DNA from: Chiloscyllium plagiosum
Taxonomy: Eukaryota
Assembly (NCBI RefSeq): GCF_004010195.1
Contig: NC_057751.1
Coordinates: forward strand, 7,902,137 to 7,964,136
Length of the DNA stretch: 62,000 nt
Direction: 5' to 3'
The notes under the pieces were generated by a model. It ran no database searches. It was not told the origin of the DNA and saw only the letters and a program-made list of their open reading frames with translations. This document shows positions 14,685-58,585 of this stretch, piece after piece. Made by a program: the position numbers and the translations under genes. Numbering within the stretch: the stretch's first letter is position 1; each line of letters begins with the position of its first letter.

Positions 14685-14942
14685 GGTAGACAAGCAGGAG
14701 GCTGGAAGAACACAGCAAGCGATGCAGCATCAGGAGGTGGAGAAGTTAATGTTTCAGGTCTAACACTTCTTCAGGAGTCCTGATGCATTTGCACAAATGG
14801 GCTCCTGCTGGCCTCTGGTTTGCAAAATTTGCTCTGAAGAGCATTGACTTCTCTACCTCCTGATGCTTCCTGGCTTGCTGTGTTCTTGCAGCCTCCTGCT
14901 TGTCTACTCTGAATTCTAGCACTTGCAGTTTTTTTTTAAAAT
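14685..14942. mobile_element. Penelope-derived fold-back (inverted pLTR) element
   Basis: Inverted arms at about 14687-14751 and 14842-14907; degenerate HHR; imperfect 17-bp flanking direct repeat. Confidence 0.6.
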
Positions 14943-15552
14943 CTCTATCGAAATCACTGAGCTGGGTTCAAATCTGCATTGTGTCCATCTATAATTCCCC
15001 ATACCATAAAATCAAATAATGCAACCAGGATTTGACAAACGGAGATTGCAATAATGAAACAAATCATTGCACGGCCGAATTTGTGTGGGCACTTCTGCAG
15101 TGAAAGACGCAGCTCAACATTCCAACAGCAATTCAATGGTTTCTGTAGAAATTGTAACCTGTGTTCCAGCTGTTTTCACTTCACCAAGACAAGTACAGGT
15201 CCCATTCTCTACATGGGGGTGGGGGGGGCGGGCAGGAACTGAGGCAATGAGAAACAATTGGAAGCGCGTGTGTCGGCTGAGTCCAAACCTGTTCAGAGTC
15301 ATAGAGCATGGAAACTTTCCCTTCAGTCCAATCAATCCATGCCAACCATAATCCCAAATTAAACCAATCCTCTCTGCCTGCGCTTGGCCCACATCCCTTT
15401 AAACATTTCTTATTCATCCCCCAGTGTAATAAGGGTGACTATGAAAGAAGGAAAACTGAAGACCAAGTTTTGTGATCCTCAAAGTTCTCAATCAATTCAC
15501 AGAAAACTAACTTGCAAATCACTGCAATAACTAACAACAAGACCAGACTCAC

Positions 15553-15746
15553 CAAACAACGCACTAAAGCTCCTACGTGCACCATCTTCTCATGTATTGG
15601 AACAATTATCACATTAAGAAAATAATTAACATCACGAGTGACCCACATCTTTTCACCAAAGTAGATGAAGTGATGCATTCGCATATGAAACAGGATGCCA
15701 GAATACTGCGTATATTCCTTCCCTGCCAATATCTCAGATTCCCTTG
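15553..15746 (-). CDS. Putative internal exon (RESEILAGKEYTQYSGILFHMRMHHFIYFGEKMWVTRDVNYFLNVIIVPIHEKMVHVGALVRCL)
   Basis: ctctgtgtttcactgcttgcctgacag| acceptor, TTG|gtgagt donor, 194 nt; single open frame, phase 1->0; unique sequence. Confidence 0.65.
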
Positions 15747-16062
15747 CTGTCAGGCAAGCAGTGAAACACAGAGGTTCAGTGCTTCAAAAGGCCTATGATG
15801 TGCGTAAATCACCAGAAGTTATCTTGAATTTGGCTATTTGTTCAGAAATCTCACTGACAATCAAATAGTGAAACAATAATTAAAACCAAAATAAGACCCT
15901 TCAAATAAGCAAATTAAGTTTAACATCCTTACTTGGCTATTGCCTGATGACTGGTGAAATCTAGCCAGGATTCCAACCAACAGTGTCAATCTCTGGAAGA
16001 GTCGAGAGTGTATTGCTGGAAAAGCACAGCAGGTCAGGCAGCATCCGAGGAGCAGGAAAATC

Positions 16063-16090
16063 AACATTTCGGGCATAAACCCTTCATCAG
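16063..16090 (-). ncRNA. Minimal hammerhead motif, slightly mutated
   Basis: minus strand CTGATGA-A-GGGT-TTAT-GCCC-GAAA-TG-TT. Confidence 0.5.
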
Positions 16091-16112
16091 GCTTAGACCC
16101 AATTCCCGATTC

Positions 16113-16140
16113 CTGATGAAGGGCTTATGCCCGAAACGTC
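16113..16140 (+). ncRNA. Minimal type-I hammerhead ribozyme motif (Penelope pLTR type)
   Basis: CTGATGA-A-GGGC-TTAT-GCCC-GAAA-CG-TC. Confidence 0.7.
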
Positions 16141-16284
16141 AATTCTCCTGCTCCTCGGATGCTGCCTAACCTGCTGTGCTTTTCCAGCACTACACTCTCG
16201 ACTCTGATCTCCAGCATCTGCAGTCCTCACTGTCTCCCAATCTCTAGATTGATCCTTGTGCACTGTTGTTATAGACTAATTAAG

Positions 16285-16995
16285 TCAGAGTCATACAGCA
16301 CAGAAAAAGATTATTCAGTCCAACCAGTCCATGCTGACCATTATCCCAAATTAAACAAATCCCACCTGCCTGCGTTTGGCCCATATTACTCCAAACATTT
16401 CTTATTCATTTTCTTACCAGGTGTGTTTTAAATGCTCTAACTGTACCCGCATCCACCACTTCCTCTGGAAGTTCATTCCACACATGAACCACTGGCTAAA
16501 AAAATTGCCCCGTATGAATTTTTTCAGTCTTTCTATCCTCACTGTAAAAATATGCCCCCTCGTCATGAAATCCTCCACCCGAGGGACTCAACACCTGCCA
16601 TTCAAGTTGTCTATACCCCTCATAATTTTGTAAACTTTGATAAAGTCACCCCTAAACTCCTGATCACCAGGGAAACAAGTCCCAGCCTCTGCTGATTTAT
16701 GCACATTTCCTGGTAGCATTCTGATAAATCTCTTCTAAAGCCTCTCCAGCTTAATAATATCCTTCCCACAACAGGACAACCAGAATTGGACACAGCACTC
16801 CAGTAGATGCCTCACCAATGTCCTGTACAATCTCGACATGATGTCCCAACTCCTATACTCAAAGGTCTGAGCATTGAAGGCAAGCGTGCTGAACGCCTTC
16901 TTAACCACCCTGTCCACATGTCACACAAACTTCAAAGAATTATGTACCCAACCCCGTACGCCTCTCTGTTCTACAACAATGCTCAAGACCCTACT
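16285..16995 (-). mobile_element. CR1/HER1-like LINE 3' fragment
   Basis: RLYRTLVRHLLECCVQFWL; typical 3' tail. Confidence 0.9.
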
Positions 16996-17229
16996 TCTTA
17001 ACCAAGCTTCACAAATTCTCACAACAAAGTCCGAGTCGCTACATCATAAACAAGACTGAGGAAGATGGGCATGATATGCAGTCTCCAGCACAAAAAGGGG
17101 ACTGTTCTGTGCTGTGATTACGCCCTGCTTGAACCTCCAATATTTCATCTTAGCTGATGGGCAGAAACTCATATCCCAGTCCTGCGGGAAAGACGGAGAT
17201 GATGCCCAAGCATTTTGTCTTGTACTCAC

Positions 17230-17322
17230 GAGGACCAATGCAAGAATGCCAAAACCACAACAATTTCTTTCCTACAGTATAAGTTGTTGTGACAATCCAA
17301 AATTTGGCATTTTGCGTTAGTC
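17230..17322 (-). CDS. Putative internal exon (LTQNAKFWIVTTTYTVGKKLLWFWHSCIGP)
   Basis: catttcctcccgtcctcaccag| acceptor, CTC|gtgagt donor, 93 nt, phase 1->1; splices in frame to 15746. Confidence 0.6.
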
Positions 17323-17900
17323 CTGGTGAGGACGGGAGGAAATGCCCAAGCAACACGCCTCTGTTTTCAACAGTGTTCCAACTCTGTACCGCCAAGTGAC
17401 ATTGTATCCTCCTCCCTCAGTGCTCATGCCATAAAACCCACTGCTGTTGCTTTGTCTTCTTTGTGTTCAGAGGGCACAGTGAGGTGGAAAGGTGCAGCTG
17501 TAGCAACCAGGGACTCTCCTGGTCTGCACAGCCCTGGGTCACACACGGTGTTACAATCACTCATGGTGAACGCAGAGGTATGAAACCTGTACCACTCCAC
17601 TTGTTCTCAGGTTGCTGCACATCGCACGTGTTGGACTGGTTGGTGGGATAATCCTGCCAATTGGGAAACTGCCAAGACTGCTCCCACCAATCTGGAACAC
17701 AAGTGGAATTCATTCAGCTGTGAGGAGATGACCCAGCTGCAGCTTCGTGATGAAGCTGTTGGAAATTGGCCAGGTTCAGCTCATTTAGTCGCATTTCAGC
17801 TCTTTCCCAGCAAGGCAAGATGCTGGAGGACTTCACAGAAATGTACCCAAACCCCTCCCCTCCCCAGCACCCTCCAAACCTCCAACCCAATGCCAATCAT

Positions 17901-22840: not shown

Positions 22841-23071
22841 CGATATAGTGGAGAATGCATGCCCTCATACAACTCTGTGTCCTCCTCTCCTGAAAACTGC
22901 ACAGGATGGTGGGTGCGGGAGGGATACGAGGAGAAGGGTGGTCAGGGAAAACGCATGTCAGACAAGCAAAAGTATTTGGAGAATATTTCACTCATGACTC
23001 CTGACTGCCCAAAGCCTGTCCACCATCCATAAGGTACAAGTCGGCAGTGTGATGGAATATTCCTCACTTGC

Positions 23072-23436
23072 AGGCATATTGACGTTTGGAGCATGAGCTC
23101 TTTGCCAAGAATGTAAGGGAGGAAGAGAAGTTCTTCAAGGGAGGCATTATTGGAAAAGGCTTCGCAGCAAGGTCATACTCAACAAGGAGAAAGTGAGGAC
23201 TGCAGATGCTGGAGATCAGAGTCGAAAAGTGTGATGCTGGAAAAGCACAGCCGGTCAGGCAGCATCCGAAGAACAGGATAATAAACGTTTCGAGCATAAG
23301 CTCTTCGTCAGCTCTTCATTGAGCTCAGGCTCTGAAAGTCGACCCTGCTGCTCCTTAGATGCTGCCTGGCCGGCTGTGCTTTTCCACCCTTTTCGACTCT
23401 GATGTCCAGCATCTGCAGGCCTCACCTTTTCCTCAG
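23072..23436. mobile_element. Penelope-derived element inserted into a LINE
   Basis: Inverted pLTR arms and HHR; TSD attcc(t/c)cacttgc at 23059-23071 and 23437-23449. Confidence 0.7.
23284..23311 (-). ncRNA. Minimal hammerhead motif
   Basis: minus strand CTGACGA-A-GAGC-TTAT-GCTC-GAAA-CG-TT; stem II compensatory relative to GGGC/GCCC. Confidence 0.65.
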
Positions 23437-24789
23437 ATTCCCCACTTGCCTGGATGGTCACAGCTCCAACAACACTCAAGAAGTGTTGTTGACACCATCC
23501 GGGACAAAGCAGCCCGCGGGATTGGCACCACATCCACAAACATCCACTCCCTCCACAGCCGACGCTCAGTAGCAGCAGTTGTGTACCACGTACAAGATAC
23601 GCTGCAGAAATTCACCAAGGCTCCTGAGACAGTACCTCCCAAAGACATGACCACTTACATCTAGGAGGGCAAGGGCAACAGATGTTTGGGAGCACCACCA
23701 CCTGCTAGATCACCTTCAAGCCATTCGCCATCCTGATTTGGAAAGGTATCGCCGATCCTTCAGTGCCGTTAGGTCAAAATCCTCCCTAGCAGCACTGTGT
23801 GGGTGTCCAAACATCACGAGGACTTGGAATTTCAAGAAGAACTATTCAACTTTTCAAGGGAAATTCAGAATGGTATCTAAATGTTGCCTGAGTTTGCAAG
23901 TGCCATGTCCCGTGACAGAATTGTTAAGCACTTTGCCGATGTGACTTTAGATAATGCTGCAACTTTGAGTGCTCCTTATCAGCGAGCTCCCTAGAGCTTT
24001 GTCTTTCAATCATTCAGAGCCTAATCTTACAGCAAGGCCCAAATCAGTAAACTGGTCCCACCTTGGTTCATTAAACCTGGATCAAATCCTCAGTCAATGT
24101 AACAAATAATTTGCATCTAAAAACAAACAAGGAGTATAATTAATTCTAATTACATTTGCGAGCACTCAGGCTCATGAACAGTAATTGTGGAGCATTTTCG
24201 TTTTTCACTAGATGAGTCACACCTGCTCCAAGTTTCGGTACGCTCAGCAGAGGGTCAACGCAACCACGCAACACAGGGGCACCGTTCATTATGTGAAATT
24301 CCACATCAATAAGAGAGGGGTCAACCACTACTGGGAGATGGTGCACACCATTGGAAATGGCTGATTGAGCGTGAAGCAATTTTTTTTTACTCTCTCAAGT
24401 GGAACAGCCAAGCGGATCAGCGACACAAGGTGGAAGATCCAAGCTATGAAAAGGTTTCTGCCTCTGTTGGCAAAGCTGGGTAAGGGTCCGACATACTATT
24501 TCTATTTCTCAAGGGGAAATGGGAAGATGCCATCTAGTCCTCAAATCACAGACTGGACAGTTAACGAAGGAGGCCACTCTGACAGTCCAGGTCATGCCAG
24601 CTACTTTGAAAATCAGCTTTTCCCTTAAGTCTGCTAGTGTTTCACTTTGGGAGGCGAACCCTATCCAGGACCTGGGCAAGAGCGGACTCAATGATAATGT
24701 TGAGAGGACTGGGAAGGGAGGAGATGGTCCGGCAGAGTCTGAGAGCGCGTGTGCAGGCGCTGAGCTAGAAATAGATATTGTTGAGAGGT

Positions 24790-25220
24790 CCAGGGTCCTG
24801 AACATCCAAGTGAATTGCAGGCTCTCCAATGTCAGTGCCCTCTCTCAGCAGCCAGTGGCCAGTCAGCTGGGTTGGGTGGTCCATGTCATAGATACTCCTG
24901 ACTCTCAAAAGCAAGCTCTCTGCTCTGAGCTTCACCAAGGTTACCAAGAGAGGCAGAGGAAATGCTTTGGGGATGTCCTCAAACCCTTCCTGGGAAAAGA
25001 AAACAGAGTTCTGAGGAATCTATTATCCTGGACCTCCAGAACTGTTAGAAAAGGATTCAGTCCCTCACAGCCACAATGTGCGCTTATGCCAAGTCCAGGT
25101 GGAGGCCAAGAACAGCGACAGAAACATGAACCGCCCATCACACCCGTCCCAAGTGCATGTATCTGCTGTCGGACTGTTTGGTCAGCTCATCCTGTAACCC
25201 GCGCAGGTACATGGGTGAAG
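24790..25220 (+). mobile_element. Degenerate RTE-clade LINE C-terminal fragment
   Basis: QLGWVVHVI..PDSQKQALCSELHQG..QRKCFGDVLK resembles the RTE motif QLRWxGHVxRMPxxRxPKxxxYxEL...RKRxKDxLK. Confidence 0.7.
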
Positions 25221-25974
25221 TAAATGTCAGGAAGAACAGCAGGCAGAAATTCTCCGGGAGGAGTTGATTCCGAAGCCGACACGACATCAAAAGCAGCTGA
25301 AGCCTCGATCACTCTCAAGGTCCCCAAGCAGGGCTCTATATTCACAGCTGCTGAACATCATAGTTGCTGCTGATGGGGGGATCATTTGCAAATATTTGCT
25401 GATTTTATGATCATGACCTCGCTGGCAGTGCTGATCCCAGTACAGCTGATGATGCTGCAGGCCATATGCTCTGCACGCCAGCACACGCCAAGATCATGCA
25501 AAATGCATCAGCAGCTCAAAGGGGAGAAGATGTATTACAAGACGCTGCCTAAATTTGTTTCCTGTGCAAAGGGGATGTCTGTCACCTCTATGCTCAGCCT
25601 CTGATCTCCCTCCGGGTTATCCTGTGCATCATCAAGAATATCAGCTACATGGAGCTCAGGGGGTGAACACCCAGCTAATGGAGCTCTTTGCAAGTGAATC
25701 CAGTGGATTGGTCACTAGGTTTATAATCTGGGATGACATGGTGCCCAGTGTGACCCAACGCAGGAGGGGAAACCTGCATTGTCTGCTCTCTGAAAAGAGC
25801 GTTCGGTGCAAAGGGGCAAGAAAAAGAGCAGCCATCAAAAGTAACAAGTCACATTTGTCAAACACCTTTAACATTCAAAAGAACACCCCCGAGGTATCTC
25901 AAAATCTCACCATCTGGATCAAAGCCAGATGGTGAACTGTATGAAATAGGATCCAATTATTTTATAAAATAATG

Positions 25975-26410
25975 AAAGAGCTGCGGAAGCATCCCGTTTT
26001 CTGCTTGGGGACCCTGCAGCGTTCAGGGCTCAATACTGAGTTCAACAACTTCAGGGCTTGAGCTCTCCCATGTCCTTACCCCTGTCCCCCTCACAACAGG
26101 CCGAGTCATCACATGGCCCGCTGTTACACACAACCCAATGTTAGCCACTAACAGTCTCCATTAATAGCTATTCACTCTCCCGGTCAGATTGTTATCCACT
26201 CCTTGAGTCAAACTGTTCCTCTCTCTCACTTTGGGTTCTCTTCCACCTTAACTCCTTAACCCCCACCCTAGCTTCCACGTACAAACCGATACTTTCTGAG
26301 CTCCCATCAGCTCTGAGGAAGGGTTGGTCACTCAACCCGAAACGTTAACTCAGATTTATCTCCACAGATGCTGCCGGACTTGCTGAGGTTTTGTACCAAT
26401 TCTTTCGTAT
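25975..26410 (+). mobile_element. Penelope-like element 3' end (GIY-YIG C-terminus plus pLTR)
   Basis: HPVFCLGTLQRSGLNTEFNNFRA* resembles the PLE ORF end; followed by an HHR-bearing pLTR. Confidence 0.65.
26313..26347 (+). ncRNA. Minimal hammerhead motif
   Basis: CTGAGGA-A-GGGTTG-GTCACT-CAACCC-GAAA-CG-TT. Confidence 0.65.
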
Positions 26411-26790
26411 GTTATTTAACACTTATATTTGCAAAAGTGGTGGAGAAAACATGTCACATTGTGTTTCCAGTCAATTTTTGAGTTTTTCTTTTTGTAAATG
26501 ACTTTTTTTCTTGGCTCCCTGCATGACAGATCAATCCTTGGGTTGGACTTGATCTGTCTATGTACAAGGGTGAAGCTTTGAAAATCTCTGCTTCCAACCT
26601 ACTGTCCCAGCTAAATCTGAGGTATTTTGAACCACCTGACTGGACAATCTGACTCTTAAATCCAGGGACAGATGGAACATGAACCCGAAACTTCTGGGTC
26701 AGAGGTCAGGACATGACGACTGCATCACAAGATCCTTTTCTGACTCTCTATACTATATGATCCCAGATTTAAACCGAATATTACCCATTC

Positions 26791-26818
26791 CTGGTGAAGG
26801 GCTTACGCCCGAAACGTC
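26791..26818 (+). ncRNA. Hammerhead motif with core mutation (CTGGTGA)
   Basis: CTGGTGA-A-GGGC-TTAC-GCCC-GAAA-CG-TC in a pLTR relic at about 26785-26905. Confidence 0.45.
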
Positions 26819-28139
26819 GACTCTCCTACTCCTGACCTGCTGTGCTTTTCCAGCGACACACTTTTCGACTCCTGATGTCCAGCATCTACAGTCCTCATTT
26901 TCTCTCATCACCAAGGATACAATAAAGAAGCCGATTCCACTCCGTGCCAAAATTGCGTGACAACAGGAAATGCAAGGACTGCTGATCGACCGCTCAGTCA
27001 ATTCTGGTTGGGGGGGGGGGGGGGGGGGGATTGGCAGGAGCACCTTTAAGGAGTAGACGGAGACAAAGAAATGCAAAACAAGGCCAAGGAAGTGAAATCC
27101 AGAAACGAAAATCCAGGCAGCCGAAGGTGGCGGTCAGAGCGACTAAACTCGGTGGTGGTGGCAGGGTGGGGGAGGGGGGTTTGGTGCAGTGGTGGGGACT
27201 TGGCTGGCTGGCAGATGTAGACTTGGGAGGGTGGTCAGGCTGAAGGATCTCACAGAACCGGGGAGTTAGGAAGACCATGGAGCAGATGGAAACAAGCACA
27301 AGAATTAAAATCAGCAATACAAGAAAGGTACAATTTGTTGGCTTGGAGTTGCATTTCCTGCACTCTTCGGGAGATTTTGGCTGAGACCCTGCGAGCTACC
27401 AAGCTCCGACACATTCTCTCTCTCTCTCTTTCTCTCACACACACAGTGCCCAGTCGATGCAACATACATTATCAGCTATCCACTCTATCCTCAGAGATAC
27501 AGAGCTTTGCGTGAACTGCTGGAGAGCTGCCACTTCTATCCCCTCCTTACAACTTCAACTTATAATCAAACATAAGACAGAGAAATTGGCCTTTCGGCCC
27601 ATCAAGTTTGCGCTGTCATGCAGTGAGACCGTCTTTAACTCCACTTTCCTGCCTCTTGCTCATAACCCTCGACTTCTCTACTGATTCAAATCAGTTTATA
27701 ACAGCGGGCAGTTTTGGGGATGCTCATGTTCACTTTTTGGGGGGGCAGTGATTTCAACTTGCAACACTTGCTGCAATTGACCCAGCACTGAGGAAAAGCT
27801 CCTGCCCAAAATAAAATTCAATGCTTTTCCTCAACATTCACAAGCGTCACGTCACAATGAAAAAAAAGCACAGGTTCTGGTAGAAAGCCCAGTATTGATT
27901 TACCAAATACTGTAATCTCATACACTCTGATAGAATTCAATTTATCTCAGCTCGGTCATCTGCAGAATATATGACAATGGCAAGAAGCTTTGCTAAGAAC
28001 CAAAAATTGATTTTTCTCTCAATAATACAAGTCAAATATCTTTCATGTCACTCTTTTCTTCCTTCATTCTATCCTTTCCCTTATCCATGAGAAAAATAAA
28101 ATGCTGTACTGCTGGTTTCATATGGGAGAGAACATCCCC

Positions 28140-31442: not shown

Positions 31443-32313
31443 TCTAATCTCCAAAAAACTGCTCCGAGATTGACTGATCATTCTGCTGTTCCTATATACA
31501 TCAACTCTCTTCTGCACTCCCTGCACACTGGCAGTGATGTGCTGCACTCCATTCCCCCTCAAGAGCTGAGAGACATGTCTCAGAGATACGATTATCTGCC
31601 ATCTAAATGCAATGCTTCCTTTTGATTATTCTTCTAGAAACAAGAAGCCTGCCCCCAATCCTCCTCTCCTTTCTTTTATTCAGTAATAGCACATTCAATT
31701 TTCAAAAGAACAGAGGAAGCCCCAGCTCCTTTAGTCTCTAATCTGTGCATCTCGGTCGGAAAATAATGGAGCTGGGCAGAAATAAGGCTAGGCAGGCGGT
31801 GATCGACTAAGATGAAAACAGACACATAAAGACGTGACAAAAGCCACCCACAGAGTTTGTAGAACAAGGTCAGGTAACTGAAGTCTTTTTCAGAGTGTGA
31901 ACAGCACAGATTGCAAAACCACTGAGGCCTCTCATTTTCTTTTTGAAGTGAAGGACAAAACACGCAGGGTGCCTGTCACTGGGAGAAATTGAGAGCTGAT
32001 GGGTCTGGGTGTGCAATGGCTTCCTGCTGTACCTTGTCAAATTACACAAGAAACAAGTGCCCTGCCAGACATGGACAAGTATGATGCATGCAGTTCAAGT
32101 CTGAACACTGCTAAACAGCCCCGTCAGTTATATCAGAGCTTGTAACCAATTGAAATATCATTGTTTAGACCAATACACTTGCTCAACCTACACTAGAGAA
32201 AGGAACACAAGGGTCAGCCCTTTAAGGCTGTTCCACCACTCAATGGAATGTTGGGTGATCTGTTACATCACAGCCTCCCCAACGGCCACAGGTGGCAAAA
32301 ACTCGATTTCTCA

Positions 32314-32497
32314 TGTAGGTTTGCTCGCTGAGCTGGGAGGTTCATTTCCAGACGTTTCATCACCCTACTAGGTAACCTCTTCAGTGGGCCTGTTACCTAG
32401 TAGGGTGACGAAACGTCTGGAAATGAACCTCCCAGCTCAGCGAGCAAACCTACATCCAGAACCTCAGCCTGAGCTACAAATCTTCTCAAAACTCGCT
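32314..32497. mobile_element. Young Penelope-derived fold-back element
   Basis: Near-perfect ~64-bp inverted arms (about 32313-32376 and 32393-32455); exact 14-bp TSD aactcgatttctca at 32300-32313 and 32498-32511. Confidence 0.8.
32348..32387 (-). ncRNA. Minimal hammerhead motif with intact short stem I
   Basis: minus strand CCA-CTGAAGA-G-GTTACC-TAGTAG-GGTGAT-GAAA-CG-TC-TGG. Confidence 0.7.
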
Positions 32498-32902
32498 AAC
32501 TCGATTTCTCAGACAGAGCAGCGTGCATCCATCCTATATCTCTTGTCACATGTTGTAATAACTCATCTGATCGACTGATGTCCTTCAGGGAAAAAAGTTG
32601 TCTGTCCTGGCCTGATTTGCCGCACACATGACTCCAGGCTCACAGCAACTTGATTGACATCATATTGCCCTTTTTGCGATGAGAGTTAACAAAGAACAAT
32701 ATTTGCTCTCCAAGACTGCAGTGACACATTTTGCCCTTCCATACTAAAACTGCCTTCACTTACAGGATCCATATCCCTCAATTCTCCTCCTATTCATGTA
32801 TTCGTCCAGGTGCTTCTTGAATACTGCTATTGTGTCTGCTTCCACCACTGCCTCTAGCAGCGTGTTCCAGGCACAGAATTGGGCAATATATGCTGGCCTT
32901 GT

Positions 32903-36889: not shown

Positions 36890-37565
36890 AGACAGAACAG
36901 TACAGCACGGGAACAGGCCCATTTGCCCACAATGTTGTGCTGAGCATGAAGTCAAATTAAACTAATCTCTTCAGCCTATACTTGGTCCATACCCCTTCAT
37001 TCTTTAAACACCCCTATTGCATCTGCCTCCACCACCATCCATGGAAGCGTGTTCCACTCTCCGCGTAAAAAAAACCTGTCCCTCACATCTCCTTTGAATT
37101 TTTCCCCTCTCATTTTAAATGCATTGTATGAGACATTTCAACTCTGAGAAAAATATTCTGACCATCAACCCTGTCTCTGCCTCATGAGCTTCCCTCAAGT
37201 CTCCTCTCAACCTCTGCCACTCCAGAGAAAACAACTTGAGTTTTTCTAGCTTCTCCCAATAGTTCATACTGTCTAACCCAGGCAGCATCCTGGTAAACCT
37301 CTTCTGCACCCTCTTGAAAGCCTCCACATCCTTCCAGTAATGTGGCAACCAGAACTGAACACCAAGTGCGGCCGAACCAAAGTCTTTATAAAGCTGCAAT
37401 ATGACATCCTGACTCTTGTACTCAATTCCCCGACCATTAAAGGCAAGCATGCCATATGCCTTCTTTACCGCCCTTTCTACTGGCATGGTCACCTTCAGGG
37501 AGCTACAGACTTGAAATTCAAGATCCCTCTGTACATTGATGCTGTTCAGGGTCCTGCCCTTATCT
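36890..37565 (-). mobile_element. CR1 LINE 3' fragment
   Basis: KKAYGMLAFNGRGIEYKSQDVILQLYK...RVQKRFTRMLPG. Confidence 0.9.
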
Positions 37566-37699
37566 GGGACCAAGACAACTTCAACTTAGTCACTGCAGAA
37601 TTTTGCGTGATACTTCATGATGTGCCGAAGTTAATTTGCCAATTAGTCACCACTTTTTAAAAGATAAAATCTTTTGCCATGACTGCACATCTCCATTCA

Positions 37700-41840: not shown

Positions 41841-41990
41841 TAAGAGTGAGAAAGGCGTTGTTACTTTCAATTGGTTCAGTCGATCCACTGCTACATCATA
41901 ATTTAGGCTCTGCGCTTGGAAAAACTGCCAGTCCTGCTTCATGTCAGCTGGCAGTGAGTGACGAAAAGTTGTAGACATTGTCATCACTTT

Positions 41991-42107
41991 CTGGATCAGT
42001 GGTGCTGGAAGAGCACAGCAATTCAGGCAGCATCCGAAGACAGGCAAAATCGACGTTTCGGGCAAAAGCCGAAGGGTTTCCAGCATCTGCAGTCATTGTT
42101 TTTACCT
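41991..42107. mobile_element. Internally deleted Penelope-derived element
   Basis: pLTR sequence with a half HHR; exact 15-bp TSD cattgtcatcacttt at 41976-41990 and 42108-42122. Confidence 0.7.
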
Positions 42108-43608
42108 CATTGTCATCACTTTGCCAAGGCTTCATCATCAGCCTGTTTAGTCATTCTTTCCCAGTGTCTTTCTGCAACTTGTAATCCCAGATCCCTCTCC
42201 TGCCACCATCTTCTGTACTCACAGGAGACAACAGCATGGTGTCAACTGTGTATTTAATGATTCATTTGGAGGATCATTTGCCCAAGATGTGGGGTGCAGC
42301 CTGGTCCAAGTCACATGAATGAAGCAGACTGGAAAGGACACCTGTATATAATTCCAGTTCAAGTCAAACAATGACCGAAGTTTGCTTCTTTGGTGCAATG
42401 TCCATCTTTTTGCTCCTGTGATATCTGTGAGAAATAATTGTCATGCATTCATACATTAAAGATGCTTTATAAATTGCAAGGCCACGGTTCTGTTGTTCAG
42501 TCAATATATCCTGCAGCCTTTAATGGGAGAACAGCTAATGTTGGGAGCACCTTGGGATTGACATCTGTTCAAGTAGCTTCGAATGCTTGCACGCTTTTTG
42601 TCGGGGCAAGTACTTAACTTTCTCAACAACAAAGACTTTAATCGTAAAAGCATTCTGAAGGTTTTCTTTCCTGAATAGAGAGATGGGCCAGAGCTGCTGT
42701 CTTCAATTTGTGTCACTATTGTGTACAACTGTGGTTGTTGTGGCACATACTGATGACCATGAAAACTCACAGCTATTGCATGATTCATTGAAACTGATGG
42801 ATTAGCCCTGATCAATTTACTGTTTCAGGTGTCACTTGTGCTTGCCAGATTGGCAATGAGAAAAGTCGTCTTTCTGTCTGGATTGGGAACACTGAATTTT
42901 CAAACATAGAAGAGCTGCGGACATGGCAAGGGAGAGGGGTTGCAGTGAGCTCAAGGGACCTTCAAAGTTAAGCGCAGTGCATAGGTTAGTACCCTCTTCA
43001 TTGGGGCTTCTTGTTTCTGGGTTTCTTGTTGGATCAGCACAAGTGAAGGTTCAGTTTGAACTTCTCAAATTTCGAGTTCATTCTCAAGGCCTGGGAAGTC
43101 GGGGCAGGGGGTTGGTGGTGATGGTGGCGGTCACAGACCTGTTCTGGGGAAGTCATGGCTCTTCAAGCCTGCGCACCATTTCACCGACCCGTCCATTGAT
43201 GTGTTGCTGGGGTCTGAAGTTGTAGGTGTATGGGATAGCTGTGAAGGTGGTGATTGGACGCTCCTCGGGAGGTCAGCAACAGGAACGAAGAGTCAGACTC
43301 CAGTATTTCACGTGGAGCGCAGTTTGAAGATCAAAGTCGGGGAGGAAAAATGAGCATCATTTTCGCCAACATCCGCAAACCCTCTCCCAACACTGTCTTC
43401 ACGAACTTCTTCCAACACGTCAATCCTCAGAACAACGTAGCTTGCACATCTTGCTCCCAGACGCAAATCAAATCCCCAAGACTGCACAGTGTCAACCTCA
43501 CCTTCAAAGTGTATAGTGCAACCTTCCGGCAGAACTACGGTGAGCAATCCTTCAACACAGCAGGCAAAAAAATGAGCAGCCATGGGAACTGGGTCTTCAT
43601 TCTGATTA

Positions 43609-43781
43609 CAGAGAAACCTTGATTATCCGAAGTACAGAGGCAGGTACTACTTTGTTCGGTTAATTGAATGCTGGATAATCGAATGCTGGATAACATAGTT
43701 AGCCAAGCATTGGGACCTTGTGATCTTGCCGGATAATCCAAAATTTGGTGAATCGAATGCCAGATAATCAAGTTTCTTCCA
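43609..43781. mobile_element. TcMar/Tigger-like MITE
   Basis: Imperfect TIRs cagagaaaccttgattatccg / cagataatcaagtttcttcca flanked by TA. Confidence 0.6.
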
Positions 43782-45410: not shown

Positions 45411-45814
45411 GTACACAATGATAAAATTCCACCCCCAATTGAGGGTGGCTCAACCCACCAATGGCTGACCCGAAATATTGTGCACATTTTAACTAGGTCA
45501 CAAAAGGTTGGTGAGGTTTTTGGTTGTCCTGCATAGAGAAATTAACCTCTTTCACAAAATGAAACACGTCACTTTTTAATCCCCTTCAGTTCTGAGGGAG
45601 AGTCCCGTTCAATTTAAGATGTCAAACTGTTTCTTTCTCCACAGATACTGCCAGACCTGCAGAGGTGCTGTCGCACTTTCTGCTTCGACAACAAAATAAC
45701 TCCTTATAGTACTGTAATCATCTTCTGTACCCTGCTTACATCTTCAAACTTCTTTCTGCACAGAGGAGGCCACTCAGCCCTTCGAGTCTGCAGCACATGA
45801 AATACAGGATTCCA

Positions 45815-46318: not shown

Positions 46319-48823
46319 AAGATTTCTCACAAGTCTGGCCCTTGGTTCTTGCTGCTAACCTCCTGAGTTGTCTACACCTGCACTGTTTCGATATGGGTAT
46401 AGGGAGTGCGCAGGAACGTGGAGTTGATGCTAAAGTGAGTTCAGCCATGATCTTACTAAACAGCAGAGCAGGCCTGCTCCTCCTCTGAATTCTTGCGACC
46501 ACTTGTTGGTCATGAACAACATTACAACACTCAATGACAGAGAACTGGGAAAGCAAAACACTCAACAAATAGGAGAACGGAGCAATCGCCTTTGTTTCAC
46601 ATCAGAGTGGGGTCAAGGTTTTCAGATTGCTCACCAACTGTTAATATTAAGTTAACAAGAGCAAGTCTGACCCTGTTCCCACCTCATATTCTCAAGCTCT
46701 CCAGCAGGGACAGCAGGCTAAATGCGACCTGATCACAATCCCAGACAAAATCAGCTCTGACCCTTTGGACTGGATAGCTCTTGCAGTGCCTCTGCTGCAG
46801 AAACTGAACCGTCAGAACTTGACAGCATTCAAAATCCCTTCCAATACAGCATGACATTTGAGTGCTTTTGGTATGGATGTAGATAGATAACCACAAATAG
46901 TTGACAGCTGCATTCAAATCTCATTCTAACTCCCCTAATGGGCTTTGTAAGTGCACAGATCCTGAGATAACTTTGCCTTGATGTTACCAGGCCACTGTGT
47001 GGTTTGGAGCCTGTAACAATTCAGCCTGGGCACTTATAATGGACACGCTTGATGGATCTACATTTTCTAGCTCTGTATCAGGCACACGTATTGCAGATAT
47101 GAAATTGAAAATTACAGGGAATCTGACCTGCTTGTGGAAAGGTTATTGCATCTGATTTTAGCAGCCGGCAGAGTTCAGCAATTGAAATCAGTGGTTATTT
47201 CTCGAATGCTTTGTCCTGAAGCACAAGGAAGAAGGTCTGCATAGCTCCCATCCCCCTCTACACCTCTGTTGCCACCCCTGGATTCCTGAAGAAAGGTTAT
47301 ATCAAAATGTTGACTTCTCTACCTCCTCATGCTGGTTTGCTTGCTGTGTTCTTCCAGCCTCCTGCTTGTCCACCATGTTTGAAACCACCCTCTCTCTTTT
47401 TCTCATCTCTCCCTCTTCCTCTCGCATTACCACCTCGCAGTGGATTAAAGGTTGACAAGTCTGATCTCAGCTTCTCCTGCAGCCATCATAGCACTTCAAT
47501 TACACACTGCGTTCAATGACAGGTGAAACATCCAAGGTTTCTGGTGTTGATCACTGTCCACTCATCTCAGCGGGTGGAATGGTCCTCTTGACGTGTCCGA
47601 CATTGAACAAAACCAGGTGGAGATTTGGGGACAGAGTGTGGCGAGAGAGCGGATTGTTCAATTTTCCTGCCACTTTGCCTGTCCCACTACTCATCATATG
47701 AGATTGCACCAACCTTACAGTCAGAAGAGGAGGAGAAATCAGTACCAGCATCTGAACAACCACAATGGGCTGAAGAGCCTCATTGTGAATAGAAACTGCA
47801 ACCATTATTTGAAACAACCGGACAACATTCATCATGCTGATTCATGCATGACAAGTTGAACTCTGACGCACGAAGACTGCACTCCACAGGGTCACAGTTT
47901 CCGGAGTGGACTGGGGCTAACTGCGCTGAGGGATGCAAAGATCAGAAGGGAACGGATGACAAATTTCATTCATCATGGGTCATGAATTGGAGCCGAACAA
48001 AAGTGAAAGCACAGCTCAAAACAAAAGAAAACAAGAAAACTACCACACAGTCTGCAACTCGATGATAAGGCTGAAGCATTTCAAAATAAAGCCACAGGCA
48101 ATACAAGTCAGTTAGGCACCCGTTCCAATGAGGAGGAATTCTGCCAATAGAATTAATTGCTGGAAATTGCATTTTTGCTCAATCTTTGCAAAACCGAGAG
48201 ATGCCCAAGTACATCCAAACATGGTGATGTTGCCTTGTCCCCTGTCTCACATGTTGGTGCCTCACATGTCCCAATGCTGTCAGCAATGAGGTATTGATTA
48301 TTGGCTTTGTCTGAAAGATTGCAAGATGATTTGCAAGTTCCCACTGTCAGCAGGCCATGCCTGGCTTCTGTTATTGGTCACACTGAAATATGACAGCTAT
48401 TCACTGGCCAAGGGCACCTCTAAATTTGGCTGGAAAACTAAATACAGAATCTCGCATTGCTCCGCCACACTGGCACACACCTCTGAGGCATTCCATTTAT
48501 CTATGTTTCCCTTTCAAGTGAATATCATTTTGCAGACTTCATAAGAATAAGACACCAACAGAATTGAAAAATGCAGATGGAAGCAAATGCATACCTCAAA
48601 AGCAATCTGACTTGCTCTTCACTGTCGGAAACTTCAATACAATTCCGTCTGTGCTTTATTTTCTGAAAAGATTGTGTATCATGGACAGGCAAGACAGAAC
48701 ACCACAACACACAATCACTCAACCTGAACTATCAACATCTCTCTCCAACTGCACCTGCTGACTCCGCCCACCTCCCCCAAAGCTATGGCACACATGCTGT
48801 CCCCTCCACACTTCACTTCAGCT

Positions 48824-48854
48824 CTGATGAAGTGTCAGCGATACTTGAAACATT
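48824..48854 (+). ncRNA. Degenerate hammerhead motif in pLTR relic
   Basis: CTGATGA-AGTGTC-AGC-GATACTT-GAAA-CATT followed by a pLTR-type tail. Confidence 0.4.
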
Positions 48855-49332
48855 AGTCCGCTCTCTCTCTCTATGGATGCTGTCCGACCAGCTGTCATTT
48901 CCAGCACTTCTTGTTTTCAATGCAGAGTCCAGCATCTTCAATAATTTGTTCCTAACAAAACATACTTTCTTGGATTTTGGGGAAAAGACCTGGAATTATT
49001 TGGTTTAAATTTTCATTGTTCTTGAAACAAAAAGCAGTGGAGTGAATGTTTCTGGACGCAGGAATGTAGTTTGGGGACAGGAGAGTTTGTACCAGGCCAT
49101 TGTGCACATATAACTCACATCTTTGGAAGATCAAGTTTCGAATGAGTTACGTTGCAATAGAGAGTGCACCTGAAATGACCCTAACTGAATGCTTTGGGAC
49201 ATCTTTATATCTCAAAAGGCAAATTGTAAGTGCAAGTTCTTTCTCTCCCCTTCTCTGTTCATTTGTTAATGCAAAGCATCTCTCACAACTTCTGGTTTTT
49301 TGTCAGCGAAGAAGTCTGACAATGCATTAGAC

Positions 49333-49645
49333 TGGAGTCGAAAAGTGTGGCACTGGAAAAAGCTCAGCAGGTCAGGCAGCATCCGAGGAGCTAGACAGTC
49401 ATTGTTTCATTCATTAATTCCTGATGAAGAGCTTATGCCTGAGAAGTTGACTCTCCTGCTCCTGAAGAAGGGCTAATGCCCGAAACGTCGATTCTCCTGT
49501 TCCCTAGATGCTGCCTGACCTGCTGCGCTTTTCCAGCAACACATTTCCATCTCCTGCTCCTCCAATGCTGCCTGACCTGCGTGTGCTTTTTCCAACGCCA
49601 CACATTTTGACTCTGACTCTCCAGCAACTGCAGTTCTCACTTGCT
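49333..49645. mobile_element. Penelope-derived element with inverted and tandem pLTR segments
   Basis: One inverted arm followed by repeated ctcctgctcc...gctgcctgacctgc segments; two HHR motifs. Confidence 0.65.
49462..49489 (+). ncRNA. Minimal hammerhead motif (second of a tandem pair; degenerate first copy at 49421)
   Basis: CTGAAGA-A-GGGC-TAAT-GCCC-GAAA-CG-TC. Confidence 0.65.
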
Positions 49646-49649
49646 CCTG

Positions 49650-50260
49650 ATGCATTACATTGGGAAAGGGGAAATGCAATGAGATCTGGGTGCCATCATG
49701 CACCAGTCGCTTAAAGCAAGCATCGAGGTGCAGCGAGCAGTGAAGAAGGCAAATGGTATATTGGCTTCTGTAGTGTAAGGATTTGAGATAGAGTAAATAG
49801 ACAAGGTCTTTCCTCCAGGGTAGGGTTGTCAGGGTTTTGGGGGCATTAGTGAATGGAGAAAGACTTAAAAGGGACCTAAGGGGCAACTTTTTCATGCAGC
49901 GGGTGATGCATGGATGGAATGAACTGCCAGAGGAAGTGGTGGAGGCTGATTACAATTACAGCATTTAGAAGGCATCTGGATGGGTACATGCATAGGAAGG
50001 GTTTAGTGTGGTCTGGGCCAAATGGGACAAGATTAATTTAGGCTAAGTGGTCGACATGGACAAGATGGACCGAAGGGCCTGCATCCGTGCTGTGCATCTC
50101 TATGGCAGAGGTAGGGATGTCTTGCTGCAGTTGCACAGGGCTTTGGTGAGGCTACACCTGGAGTATTGTTTTTTTGGTCTCAATATCCGAGGAAACGTGT
50201 TCTGACTGTGCAGCGAGTGCAACAAAGATTTACCAGACTGAGTACTGGGATGGCAGAACT
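49650..50260 (+). mobile_element. Rearranged CR1 LINE fragments
   Basis: Scrambled ORF2 C-terminal pieces and 3' tail. Confidence 0.8.
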
Positions 50261-50264: not shown

Positions 50265-50750
50265 CAGAACATAGAACAGTACAGCACAGTACGGGCCTTT
50301 TGGCCCTCGAGGCTGTGCCAACCTTTTATCCTATTCCAAGATCTTCAGCCATGATGCGATCCCTGATTAACAGTGCCACTCCCCCACTTCTTTCACCTCG
50401 CTCCCTATTCCTTTTGAAACATCTAAACCCCAGAACATCCAACAACCTTTCCTGCCCCTGTGACATCCAAGTCTCTGTAATGGCCACAACATCATAGTTC
50501 CAAGCACTAACCCATGCCCTAAGTTCATCACCCGTATTCCCGGTACCTCTTGCATTAAAACAGCCCAGTTCTGCCACTTCACCAATCACACTGACTGAAA
50601 CTTTTCCCTATCAACTGTCTATCCCTCCCCACAGATTCTCTGTAAGCTGTATTTGACTGTTCATGAGCCACGCCATCCTCAGATCCGTAGATCCGATTCC
50701 CAACCCACCCGCCAAACTAGTTTAAACCCTCCTGAAGAGCTCTAGTACAG
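50265..50750 (-). mobile_element. CR1 LINE: APE endonuclease N-terminus fused to 3' tail
   Basis: FNARG...DELRAWVSAWNYDVVAITETW...FKRNR...GGVALLIRD, directly joined to the 3' end. Confidence 0.85.
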
Positions 50751-53375: not shown

Positions 53376-56375
53376 TGTGACGGATCCCGCCCTCGGTTCC
53401 CAATCTTTTATATTCGGCCATATTCCTAAGGCAGGGAAATCTGAGCATCAATTGATCTTGGCAGAACTGGTCTGGAGTCAGGCATACCTGGAGTGGAAGG
53501 AAGTTCCTGGTCATTCCTTGCCCGGTTGTCAGGCAAAAATCCAAGGAAGTAGCACAGCAGAGAACATCCTCAATAGCAAGAGAAGAAGGTGCCATTTATG
53601 AGGAACAAACCCCTTTATCAGTCCTTGTACTGTTAATATCAGATACCTGATGTCCAGCTTCCCCTCACTACAGCATTATCAATGCGGCCCTCTCAACAGC
53701 TTCCATCCTGTAAAGTGAATCTACCAAAATGAGGAAGAGCAGGTCAAAGGTCAGTATCTGTTCAAGATGCTCCCACAGTGACCATGTGTCACCAGATGTT
53801 GACAATCATAGGCTGTGGGAATTTTTGGTTCAACACTCTTGGAATATGAAGCTGACATCAGTCACGGTGAGCAAAAGACTTTATTCTCGATTACTGCAAA
53901 AGCTCATCATGTTCCTTCACGGGTGGAAATTCGTGTTCATGACCCTCTTGTGACAAGAGAGTGACAAATCAGAAGGTTGGCTCTGAATTACCCTCTGAAA
54001 AGGCTGAGCAAACTACTCACTACAAAGGCAGTCAAGGATGGGCAATGATTGCTGACCTTGCCCGTGACATGAACATCCCGAGGAGGAAGTAAGAAAAAAG
54101 AATCAAGTCAACCAAATCCAGGAATACAAACTTACCACCAGTCAGAAAGCATACAGCGGACCATAATGAACAGAGAACAGTTCATTCTCTCCCAGTTGGG
54201 CAATTGCATCAGTAAAATTGAACTCACAGGTGTCCATTAGGCACAGTGCTCAGTTAAACATCAATATGAATGGCATAAGATGCAGAGGGATACCAGGAAA
54301 TACTTCTGATAGGGTGAGGTTCTGTGATGTGGATTACATTGTCTGAAAGGATGGTGGACACAAACTCCACAGTAACATTCAAAAGAGAACTGGAAGACAA
54401 TGGAGATAGTAACATTGACAGGTCCAATGGTAAGAGGAATGGGACTAACTGGAGAAATCCAACTGAGATCCAGAATAGGTACCATATTTTAAGGATCGAC
54501 TTGAGGCAGACAGCTTTTTTAATCACGCAGGGAGTCAAAGGTTATGGGAGAAAAGCAGGAAGCTGGAGCTGAGGATTATCAGATCATCTCACTGAATGGC
54601 AGGGGAGATTCAAGAGGTTGAATGGCCAGCATTTATTGCTGCATCCCTAATTACCCAGAAGGCAGTTAAGAATCAACCACATTGCTCTAGGTCTGGAGTC
54701 ACATGTGGGCCACACCAAGTAAGGTTTCCTTCTCTGAAAGCCATTACATGTCCACCTCACCCTTATCCACAAATGTCGATTTTAAGAATGCACTGAGCTC
54801 AACTCCCAAAGCTTGCACTTTCTTACTGGTCCATGGCAAGAAATGGTTGCTCAGACTTGACAGGCCAGATTATCTGCTTCCATGATCGGATATTGTATGA
54901 GTCCATGAGTTACTGTGAAGTGTTGACTCCCTGCACTATGTCAGAGGGCAGTTCAGAAAGTCAAACAGGTACATCAGATTAAGCAAGCAAGGTAGATTTC
55001 CTTTCTTGAATGGCTTGGGTGAACCAGATTTTGTTTTAACTTAGGGCAATTGATTCTCATTTCACTGTTCATAGCTTCCTTCGGCATCTGGATTTATGAG
55101 TAGAAGTTAAATTCCACCAGCTCTCATCACAAGATTTGCATGTATAATCCCAGAATATAAGCCTCAGCTTTTGGACTGCAAGTCCAATGGTGTGTGCATC
55201 TGCCATGGTCTTTTCTGTTGCACCATGAAGCAACTGTTCCCCTGTGAATCTTCATATAACGTCAACAAGAAATCAATGTTTTTACATTCAACACCTCTTC
55301 CACCAAAATCAAGGCTTCTCTTCACCTTCATTGACTTGTTGCCCAATAACTTTTATCGTTTTCCTTTCCTTTTCTGGACTTCTCCTTGCACCATGTATTA
55401 TTTCAGATCTTTCTGCATTAAACTGAATTCCTGCACATCAAGTTCGACGTGCGCAGAATAAACTGATAAATGTTTTGGCTTATCAACCCCATAATCACAA
55501 TTGTATTTTAAGTAAGAGAAAATACATCACATATTAAACAGGTAGATGTAACAGCGAGAAGGAGACAGCCAAATCAATATGGAGAGACATCAGTTAATGA
55601 TAACAAGGGCTAAGCATCAGCGGCTCAAGGTGAACAAACAGATAGTGGGCTCATTAGCTGAATGAAAGAAGCTGCAAGGAATTGCAATGCGATAAATCAA
55701 ACCACCTTCAATATCAAACAAATGCAACTGGGATAGCACAGGGTTGAAGGTACAAACAACTGCAGAAGATAAATGACTTTTCTTCAAATGACAACAGGGT
55801 ACAAGGGAGGAAAGTGTGCAAGTCTTGTATAGACTGTGATCCCCATGAATTTGTAACATCAGGGCCTTGATACAAGTCACTGCCTTTCTGATGTTGGAGC
55901 AGAGTCTTCCAGTCTCAAGGTACTTCTAACTCGATGACTTATGCCTGGTACATAATGGAAAGGCTCTGGAGAGTCAGGAAGGCAGTTACGCACACAGAAC
56001 TGACAATCTCTGACCCGATCCTCTGGTCATTGTATTTCTGGAGTTGGCCCAGTTCAGTTTCTGGTCCATCCTGTGAGGACTTGTACTGTTGAAGAAAATG
56101 ATGATGGGACCATCAATCAAGGTTGAGGAGAGATGATTTGATTCCCACAGTCCAAACATGCGCATGTTTCCCTGTGACCATTTATTCCTGCACTGGTTAC
56201 AAATCTGTCTATCTCAGCCTTGAAAATATTTAACAACCAAATCTCGACAGCCCTTCGAGGTAAAGAATTCCCTTTCTTACCTTGTTAACTCAAATTTATT
56301 TGGTTTGTTCTAAACCATGGAATCTTGAGATTTTACTCTCTTCCCAAACTTGGTTGACATTCCAGACGTGAACAT

Positions 56376-56712
56376 GGGGAAGCAATAGCCTAGCGGGATC
56401 ATTACAGACTGCTAATCCAGAGACCCAGTTTATGTTCTGGGGACCTGGGTTCGAATCCTACTAAGGCAGATGGTGAAATTTGAAGAAATAAACACCTGGA
56501 ATTAAGAATCTAATGATGACCATGAATCCATTGTCGATTGTCGTAAAAATCCCATCGAGTTCACTCAGGTCCTTTAGGGAAGGAAACTGCCATCTTTACG
56601 TGTGACTCCAGACCCACAGCAATGTGGTTGACTCTTAACTGCCCTCTGGGCAATTAGGAATGGGCAATAAATGCTGAGCTTGGCAGCAATACCCTCATCC
56701 TGTAAATAAACG
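56376..56712 (+). mobile_element. Family B SINE
   Basis: A/B boxes (tagcctagcgg, ggttcgaatcc) and body. Confidence 0.85.
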
Positions 56713-57780
56713 AAAAAAAAATGTGGAACCTGATGCTCAATCAAAATGCTCGACAACGGAGGGAATATTTGCTTGTTGAAGGGTAGTTATTGTTGTCATG
56801 TAGGCAAGAGCACTATCAATTCAGACATGTACTACTGTCCAATAGCAGTTGGATTATCTGCTCCCTCACGGCGTCAATTAAGGGATCAATATCAGCCAGA
56901 TCACAAGCGGTGAGGACCACTGCATCTCTCAGAAATAGTGCCGTGGGATCCTCAGAGCCATCTGAGAGATCGAATGGGATCTCAGTTGAACAAGCATGAA
57001 GAGAAAGCAGGAATGGGGTAATGAAATTGTACAGCCATGATCACATTGAATGGTGGTGCAGGCTCGAAGGGTCAAAGGGCCGACTCCTGCACCTATTTTT
57101 CCAGTGTTTCTACGTTTCGCCTCACTTGAAAATGGCAAAACCGACACACCGTGGAGTACAGGCTCAGGTCAGCGGAACTGGAACCCATCACCACCTGGTT
57201 CACAAGTGACATCGAGTGAACCACGGTGAGGTCAAGTATCTGGGATGAAACACATCAGGCCAACGATCAGTCGAGGAGGAAGTTTCCACAGGGAGCGAGT
57301 GACTCCAGCCTGGAGGGATGTCCATTTGGATCAGAACAGGCGCAGGACACGATTTCGAGTGTGACGAGCTCCGTAGCAGAATAGACCACCCTGAGCCAGC
57401 ATCCGGACCCGCAGGGTTTCAGAAGAATCCACCCAGCTGAGGTTCTGGCAGATGTCAAGGCGAATCTCAGGAAAGCAGGAGAGATAGAGGTGACAAACAT
57501 ATAAGTGTCGCCGGGTGGATTGATTCTACGCCCGTCAGACTCAGAAAAGTGAAAGGAACTCATCAGCCACCTCAGTAATCCACAAAACTGGCCCATAGTT
57601 TGGACCGATTCATCACGAAGGGTGAGGCCGCACAAGAACTGAACGGTCACTGATGTTTCCTCTCCTTTTCACGTCCAAAGCAGGAATCTCATTACATCCC
57701 CTGGTGGGATTTTACTCTGAAAACAACAAATGTTTGGATATCACATGGGTTCAGGCAGCATCCATGGAGACACAGTAAGT

Positions 57781-57812
57781 TAACGTTTCGAGTCTAGATG
57801 ACTCTTCATCAG
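57781..57812 (-). ncRNA. Minimal hammerhead motif
   Basis: minus strand CTGATGA-A-GAGTC-ATCTA-GACTC-GAAA-CG-TT. Confidence 0.7.
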
Positions 57813-57949
57813 AGCTGAAGCGTGGAGGGGGTACCACTAATGCAATAGTGAGTGAGTGTGGGGAGAATGGTGGTTGTCATCATACCCTACTAATTTAAAG
57901 TTCGGCATTTTCTAATGACCCCAACAGGGCATTTGACTTGTATCACAAC

Positions 57950-58585
57950 TCCCCTCACCTCTGTCCAAGGCCCCAAGGGATCCTTCCACATCCGCCAGAA
58001 GTTTACCTGTACATCTACCAATGTCATCTACTGCACCCGTTGCACCCGGTGTGGTCTGCTCTACATCAGGGAGACAGACGCCTTCTTGTGGACTATTTCA
58101 GAGAACATCTCTGGGACACCCGCACCTGCCAACCCCACCACCCTGTGGCTGAAAACTTCAACTCCCCCTCCCAGTCAGCTAAGGACATGCAGGTCCTGCA
58201 CCCCCTCCATTACCAAACTGTTTCCATCCGTCGCCTGGACGAAAGATGCCTCACATTCCACCTGAGGACCCTGCAACCACACGGGATAAAAGTGGTTTTC
58301 AACATGTTCCTCATTTCCCCTCTCCCCACATTATCTCAGTCCCACGACTCCAATGCCGCACTGCTCTCTGGACCTGTCCATCACCGCGCCCCATCCCCCC
58401 CAACCCCGACCTATCACCTTCATCCACCTATCACTTTCTCAGCGTCCTTCCGCCCCACCTCCACCCATTTACCTCTCAGCCCTGGCCCACAATCCTCATT
58501 CTTGATGAAAGGCTTATGCCCAAAACGTCGATTCTCCTGCTCCTTGGATGCTGCCTGACCTGCTGTGCTTTCCAGCAACACGCTG
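57950..58585 (+). mobile_element. Penelope-like retroelement 3' fragment (GIY-YIG endonuclease plus pLTR)
   Basis: FTCTSTNVIYCTRCTRCGLLYIRET...FREHL...PVAENFN...LRTLQPHGIK, frameshifted; pLTR with mutated HHR at 58501-58529. Confidence 0.85.

Follow-up and report, generated by a model that had tools for sequence, protein, structure and literature searches.

We examined a 62,000-nt stretch of the Chiloscyllium plagiosum genome (contig NC_057751.1, positions 7,902,137 to 7,964,136 of the forward strand; hereafter the window, numbered from its first letter) for minimal hammerhead ribozymes of the kind carried by Penelope-like elements (PLEs), and found 6 exact and 11 decayed motifs in short repeats. 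The descriptor consisted of the box CUGANGA, one extra purine, a helix II of 4–7 bp and GAAACGUH. A sequence-only reading of the same DNA had reported six cores, and all six are exact (pattern CUGANGA-R-helix II-GAAACGU-H), with both the CUGANGA and GAAA boxes and an NUH cleavage site: 16113, 26313 and 49462 on the plus strand and 23311, 32384 and 57812 on the minus strand, each named by the position of C3. As that reading had said, stem III is the palindrome ACGU in all six. All six also carry, after A9 and ahead of helix II, a purine that stays unpaired and that the earlier reading had omitted; a descriptor without this purine gave 0 matches in the window. Five of the six exact cores have G-C at the 10.1-11.1 pair; the exception, 32384, has G-U there and G-C in the partner arm.

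The five mutated copies reported earlier are likewise all present, and one of them needed its start moved by a base. In the copy at 16090 (minus strand) the ACGU has become AUGU, in 26791 (plus) the core carries A6G, in 48824 (plus) the palindrome reads ACAU and helix II is broken, and in 49421 (plus) the GAAA box is broken. The copy placed at 58501 begins at 58502 (plus) and carries C3U, G10.1A and G12A. Further decayed copies, beyond those five, are found at 606, 14834, 45593 and 47286 on the plus strand and at 14774 and 23107 on the minus strand.

To judge how often such motifs appear by chance, we used dinucleotide shuffles of the window (n = 40), which gave a mean of 0 exact, 0.05 one-mismatch and 2.1 two-mismatch matches. 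Chance matches to a short motif would agree with the 2.1 matches reached once two mismatches are permitted, and with the finding that Rfam covariance models gave no hammerhead match on the window at E ≤ 10, the minimal forms being without helix III. Against this stand six exact motifs as compared to none in 40 shuffles, every one of them inside a repeat family. When pairing was not required, the two boxes lay 8–40 nt apart at 10 sites, and all six sites that bear ACGU nevertheless close helix II (4, 7, 4, 5, 7 and 4 pairs), with a chance per site of 0.0008–0.046 by spacer shuffling, the sites not all being independent. The excess of exact matches, the repeat-family membership and the helix II pairing refute the chance explanation, to which we give practically no credence.

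Each exact core has its own setting. The core at 16109–16144 (plus; C3 16113, cleavage site after C16140, helix II GGGC/GCCC) lacks the first helix I pair and forms the right arm of a fold-back. The core at 26309–26350 (plus; C3 26313) is solo, with a 7-bp helix II and a C-A mismatch at position 2 of helix I. The core at 49458–49493 (plus; C3 49462) lies in a partial tandem, and its native 5' helix I arm has been replaced. On the minus strand, the core at 23280–23315 (C3 23311, helix II GAGC/GCUC) has lost its 5' helix I arm at a doublet junction, and the core at 57778–57816 (C3 57812), with a 5-bp helix II and a helix I C-A mismatch, is the sole exact minus-strand copy outside a same-family fold-back. 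The core at 32348–32387 (minus; C3 32384), of an unrelated lineage, has a 7-bp helix II and a 3-bp helix I and forms the left arm of a near-perfect fold-back. Among the decayed copies, solo stubs on the plus strand lie at 26786–26904 (the A6G core, 26791), 48814–48921 (48824) and 47277–47377 (47286); older decayed plus-strand stubs lie at 45583–45666 (profile E 2.6e-6) and at 605–679 (profile E 0.003), the latter outside the 14685–58585 interval of the sequence-only reading, and a decayed core without a tail lies on the minus strand at 23070–23113 (23107; profile E 0.048).

A profile built from 12 seeds found 20 related pieces within the window that share one common downstream tail. This tail-sharing group includes a type with a 4-bp helix II (GGGC/GCCC, variant GAGC/GCUC), a type whose helix II has 5–7 bp, represented by 26313, 48824 and 57812, and an older variant at 14774 and 47286. 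The tail at the 32384 locus is unrelated to the others, and no further copy of it was found in the window. The claim of at least three families thus holds for subfamilies; as independent lineages, at least two are seen, the group with the common tail and 32384 apart. The claim that stem II co-varies also divides in two. Helix II differs and yet is closed at all six ACGU sites, and between subfamilies its changes are compensatory (pair 2 is G-C, A-U or U-A; pair 4 is C-G, U-A or A-U); these cross-family pairs were counted by anchoring on the two boxes, as 32384 was placed wrongly when MAFFT aligned all families together. In the 10 rows of the largest subfamily, in contrast, helix II is 89% paired and just one pair varies on both sides, and covariation does not stand out by pair count, which 235 of 500 shuffles matched (14 of 500 for the score).

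Two features on which the sequence-only reading was silent are the weak helix I of most copies and a set of six inverted doublets. In the main subfamily (10 rows), 65% of helix I cells are paired, in the form of two pairs plus a mismatch, and pair 3 is open (U-U or U-C) in 8 of 10 copies. Elsewhere, helix I has three contiguous pairs in 32384; in both 26313 and 57812 it has one pair, and pair 2 is a C-A mismatch.

The six doublets, near 14.7, 16, 23.2, 32.3, 42 and 49.3 kb, are inverted with their tails outward. At 15987–16245 (copies 16090 and 16113) the arms are 93% complementary over 94 nt, with an 8-bp direct repeat on both sides. At 32300–32511 the arms are 98% identical, the right arm is 42 nt longer, and a 14-bp target-site duplication (TSD) is present (32300–32313 and 32498–32511). 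The doublet at 41976–42122, which lacks a full core, has a 15-bp TSD (41976 and 42108). At 49322–49657 an inverted arm is joined to three partial tandem pieces, of which 49421 is decayed, 49462 is exact and 49551 is tail only, with an 8-bp direct repeat outside. At 23186–23432 the minus-strand copy 23311 is paired with a copy that starts in helix II, and an older doublet with decayed cores (14774 on the minus strand, 14834 on the plus strand) occupies 14681–14912. At 14834–14850 (plus), CUGAAGA leads nearly straight into the region of the cleavage site, as though the GAAA box and the helix II before it had been skipped or deleted.

Direct repeats thus lie outside both tails in four of the six doublets (14, 15, 8 and 8 bp). 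Random placements reach a repeat of 8 in 1.8% of cases and of 11 in none, and the other 11 of 15 intervals have repeats of at most 6. The 5' starts cluster at the core: 13 of 16 aligned pieces start between –16 and +31 of C3, seven of them between –5 and 0, and none of the 16 starts exactly at the cut site (ends are accurate to within a few bases). A copy that runs across the cut site must derive from uncut or rejoined RNA, in agreement with the anole work (PMC11167929). The 3' ends of the stubs fall into two groups, at about +75 to +101 and +111 to +124, and the 3' ends of the two arms differ by at least 23 nt in four of the six doublets; the stubs are 100–130 nt long. Taken together, the 5' truncation, the partial tandem and inverted copies, the optional tail and the variable TSD are traits of PLE-like copies. 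The stubs decay fastest at CpG: tail positions in CpG differ in 10 of 28 cells as compared to 28 of 337 at other tail positions. Both the ACGU palindrome and C11.1-G12 are CpGs, and the CpG observed/expected ratio is 0.34.

The fold-back at 32327–32441 matches the mir-642 model at 62 bits, under the gathering threshold of 90, and mir-5897 likewise below gathering; these matches reflect the fold-back. Such fold-back loci may be mis-annotated as miRNAs or serve as editing substrates.

A direct link to PLEs is found at the right end of the window. On the plus strand, 57936–58312 holds a 5'-truncated remnant of a PLE GIY-YIG endonuclease with one frameshift near 58077–58080, and 58313–58598 holds the C-rich 3' untranslated region, decayed hammerhead (C3 58502) and tail of the same element, the hammerhead lying about 190 nt downstream of the open reading frame (ORF) remnant. 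The first half of this remnant has 348 relatives at E ≤ 0.001. Of the 10 relatives picked for length and scanned with Pfam at E ≤ 0.01, nine have GIY-YIG and six also have RVT_1. A profile built from the 150 relatives listed, less a single protein of 4395 aa (149 in all), maps both endonuclease halves, at iE 4e-25 and 7e-15, split by the one frameshift. Named matches to the remnant come from a stingray and the whale shark. Of 86 informative relatives, 55 carry a Cx2-6CxxC linker; in the window's copy this linker has decayed. A direct Pfam search of the window's GIY-YIG remnants gave no match, nor did word-indexed protein searches with the endonuclease remnant, and its atlas clusters point to PF26215 at 0.92, which we take as a lead only. 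A possible C-terminal end of a PLE endonuclease lies at 25972–26055 (plus), about 260 nt upstream of the hammerhead at 26313, with weak matches (tblastn E 5e-4 for 1 of 149 queries; profile iE 0.12). For 32384, the architecture suggests a PLE origin. Exact cores, common tails and the endonuclease link all bear out the proposal that the motifs are minimal type-I hammerheads of the PLE kind and fall into several subfamilies.

Other retroelement traces lie nearby. At 57716–58598, two subfamilies (the 57812 minus-strand stub and the endonuclease-bearing 58502 copy on the plus strand) form a head-to-head pair with tails outward, for which no TSD was found; if both copies stem from a single event, this would speak for priming on two RNAs. 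At 60661–60967 (minus) there is an insertion of about 300 bp with a second, different GIY-YIG PLE remnant (60698–60913, iE 1e-9) and a 12-bp direct repeat on both sides (60661 and 60956), with no hammerhead and no tail; it appears to be an internal PLE fragment inserted without the usual 3' end. Decayed protein-like frames without a Pfam match, at 57300–57620, 43000–43620 and 24450–25220, resemble old retroelement ORF remnants. The self-repeated share of the window is about 24% and includes several families that resemble short interspersed nuclear elements (SINEs). There are many reverse transcriptase (RT) and endonuclease remnants of long interspersed nuclear elements (LINEs), mostly on the minus strand (for example, 9555–10190, 37115–37585 and 50329–50607 on the minus strand and 8599–8872 on the plus strand), and there are two runs of N (9617–9742 and 10471–10622).

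The window's hammerheads belong to the class of PLE minimal hammerheads described by Cervera and de la Pena 2014 (PMC4209133). In that paper, these have an extra base after A9, a G10.1-C11.1 pair and a palindromic 15.2-16.2, and both solo truncated copies and opposite-strand pairs are described. Shared with that set are the type I form, a helix III replaced by the ACGU palindrome, the presence of several families in one genome, a majority of solo truncated copies, and pairs on opposite strands that lie 100–700 bp apart. In contrast, no cartilaginous fish is among the 56 representatives listed, and the helices I given there mostly have 2–6 contiguous pairs, whereas in the two commonest types here a mismatch in helix I is fixed. 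The density here, about one exact core per 10 kb, is also unlike the per-genome counts given there (about 4,000 in coelacanth and 9,000 in Xenopus). Set against the known class, the copies stand apart in their host lineage, their density and the mismatch that is fixed in helix I.

The copies also resemble Neptune-type PLEs as described by Craig et al. 2021 (PMC8557442), with a C-terminal GIY-YIG, a 3' hammerhead, 5' truncation, partial tandems, an inverted 5'-truncated copy and an optional 30–40-bp tail. That paper gives a Cx2-5CxxC linker before GIY-YIG for both Neptune and Nematis; unlike Neptune-type elements, the window copy has a decayed linker and no RT, so that it may belong to either Neptune or Nematis. 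PAc, a Poseidon element from Anolis (Frangieh et al. 2024, PMC11167929), has, like the elements here, a hammerhead upstream, in its case of two internal RT start sites. According to that study, uncut RNA is the template and both target strands are nicked and extended, and the anole hammerhead needs protein, is dispensable for insertion and leaves no cut ends in RNA-seq. Two RT starts and nicking of both strands, as in PAc, fit the stub lengths and the doublets seen here. The main family here is of a different clade from PAc.

Taken together, these data suggest that the motifs are very probably minimal type-I hammerheads in dead, 5'-truncated PLE 3' ends, likely with no cutting role in place; the genomic copies are predicted to be inactive. 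In the mechanism we propose, a PLE protein would nick the target DNA, and reverse transcription would begin within the RNA tail, from either of two sites 75–125 nt downstream of the core, on a template left uncut by the ribozyme. Synthesis would usually halt at or near the hammerhead fold and so leave a stub of 100–130 nt, and inverted doublets may come from priming on both target strands or from fold-back. In the master element, the ribozyme may act as a slow, protein-assisted dimer between tandem pseudo-long terminal repeats; this would be in line with the report (PMC4209133) that monomers are inactive and dimers weak in vitro. The dispersed stubs would then decay, quickest at CpG. The two groups of tail ends and the unequal arms fit the optional 30–40-bp tail and the inverted 5'-truncated copies of PLEs and the two anole RT start sites.

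Several observations weigh against dead PLE ends as the explanation. TSDs were not found for the 9 non-doublet intervals or for two of the six doublets (14k and 23k), the boundaries being uncertain. Away from CpG, the core is at least as well conserved as the tail (changes in 2 of 60 cells as compared to 28 of 337, p = 0.29), in a comparison biased by the choice of copies with a recognisable core. The copies at 49462, 26313 and 57812 keep helix II in context (predicted P 0.6–0.99), by folding energies that penalise real hammerheads as well. The link to an ORF is firm in just one subfamily, being weak for 26313 and not seen for 32384; a PLE RT domain was not found in the window, where the 57936–58312 copy is truncated.

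The clustering of 5' ends at the core, with 7 of 16 within –5 to 0, could instead mean that the stubs form a mini-element of their own, ribozyme-headed and non-autonomous in the manner of a SINE or a retrozyme, whose 110–130-nt unit is moved by PLE proteins. Stubs are indeed far more numerous in the window than ORF-bearing copies, and animal retrozymes have been proposed as non-autonomous PLE derivatives. However, the 5' ends spread from –16 to +31 and beyond, the 58502 copy continues upstream into an ORF, and no tandem array of 170–400-nt units each with a hammerhead is found in the window, so that we consider a mini-element improbable. Non-LTR retrozymes share with these copies type I hammerheads and PLE ancestry, according to PMC7229834 and bioRxiv 10.64898/2026.07.22.740005, the latter of which reports retrozymes in one chondrichthyan sampled. 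Unlike the window's copies, retrozymes are described there as tandem arrays with a hammerhead in every unit. The sole tandem in the window has periods of 41 and 57 nt and one exact core, and a retrozyme reading was rejected because there are partial tandems only, not tandem units that each hold a complete hammerhead.

The sequence-only reading had also proposed that the minus-strand copies lie within a host pre-mRNA, pair with each other as double hammerheads and cut it. Three exact minus-strand cores do exist, and conserved intronic hammerheads are known in amniotes (RECK and others, PMC6155905). Outside repeats, a weak skew on the plus strand (GC skew –0.038, AT skew +0.037; block bootstrap intervals exclude zero) fits minus-strand transcription, and therefore a long intron is possible. 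The copies themselves do not bear the proposal out. In context, helix II has a probability of 0.00 for 16090 and 32384, each of which, like 16113 on the plus strand, is predicted to lie buried within the fold-back that it forms; 16090 is without the palindrome, and 23311 is without its native 5' helix I arm. When the 5' arm of one copy was matched with the 3' arm of another, both first helix I positions paired in 0 of 12 cross-combinations of the four minus-strand copies. The three exact-core heterodimers reach –2.9 to –7.7 kcal/mol as compared to –16.5 to –18.4 for the separate monomers, in an energy model that also penalises true hammerheads (best homodimer –17.1 as compared to –20.2). Minus-strand copies are 7.2, 9.1 and 25.4 kb apart, and neither strand is depleted (exact cores three plus and three minus, solo copies seven plus and two minus, p = 0.18).

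No host exon was found either, in a search that was crude and incomplete. Pfam searches of 148 ORFs (about 143 of the 321 low-repeat ORFs of at least 55 aa, picked mainly for length, and a few others) returned LINE RT and endonuclease remnants and three sub-threshold matches only, 55 additional pieces had no Pfam match, and two crude splice/codon scans gave no convincing exon. The stretch or part of it is present in 20 of 24 listed sequencing runs, with no RNA run among the holders listed. With no exon found, buried or damaged copies, no cross-combination that forms both first helix I pairs and spacings of 7–25 kb, cleavage of a host pre-mRNA is not supported and we regard it as highly unlikely. 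Amniote intronic hammerheads are also type I and in non-coding DNA; unlike the copies here, which are multicopy, minimal and decaying, they are conserved, single-copy and canonical (PMC6155905). Nothing marks the window's copies as domesticated intronic ribozymes.

As such, the finding is ordinary, as PLE minimal hammerheads have already been described from cnidarians to reptiles, and the window adds a shark-like genome in which they are dense. In literature covering few subscription papers, no paper turned up on PLE hammerheads of sharks or elasmobranchs, nor on twin priming in PLEs. Host pre-mRNA cleavage, if true, would matter much more, and it has almost no support in the window. A speculative idea, which we hold to be rather unlikely, is that in these shark-type PLE families, which are very abundant, the hammerhead is less a cutter than a folded landmark: a fixed helix I mismatch would keep the template uncut, RT would stop at the fold and so set the 110–130-nt unit, and priming at both nicks would build fold-backs that seed long double-stranded RNA hairpins about every 10 kb of host transcript. 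The signature of priming at both nicks would be a TSD outside two outward-facing tails of different length. If this were true, such loci would let the second-strand step of PLE integration, still unsolved, be read from the genome. The remaining value of the finding is mechanistic: the many doublets whose TSDs are clean and whose tails are unequal offer a large natural sample of how PLE integration is completed, and the mismatch fixed in helix I has a bearing on the question whether the ribozymes of PLEs must cut at all.

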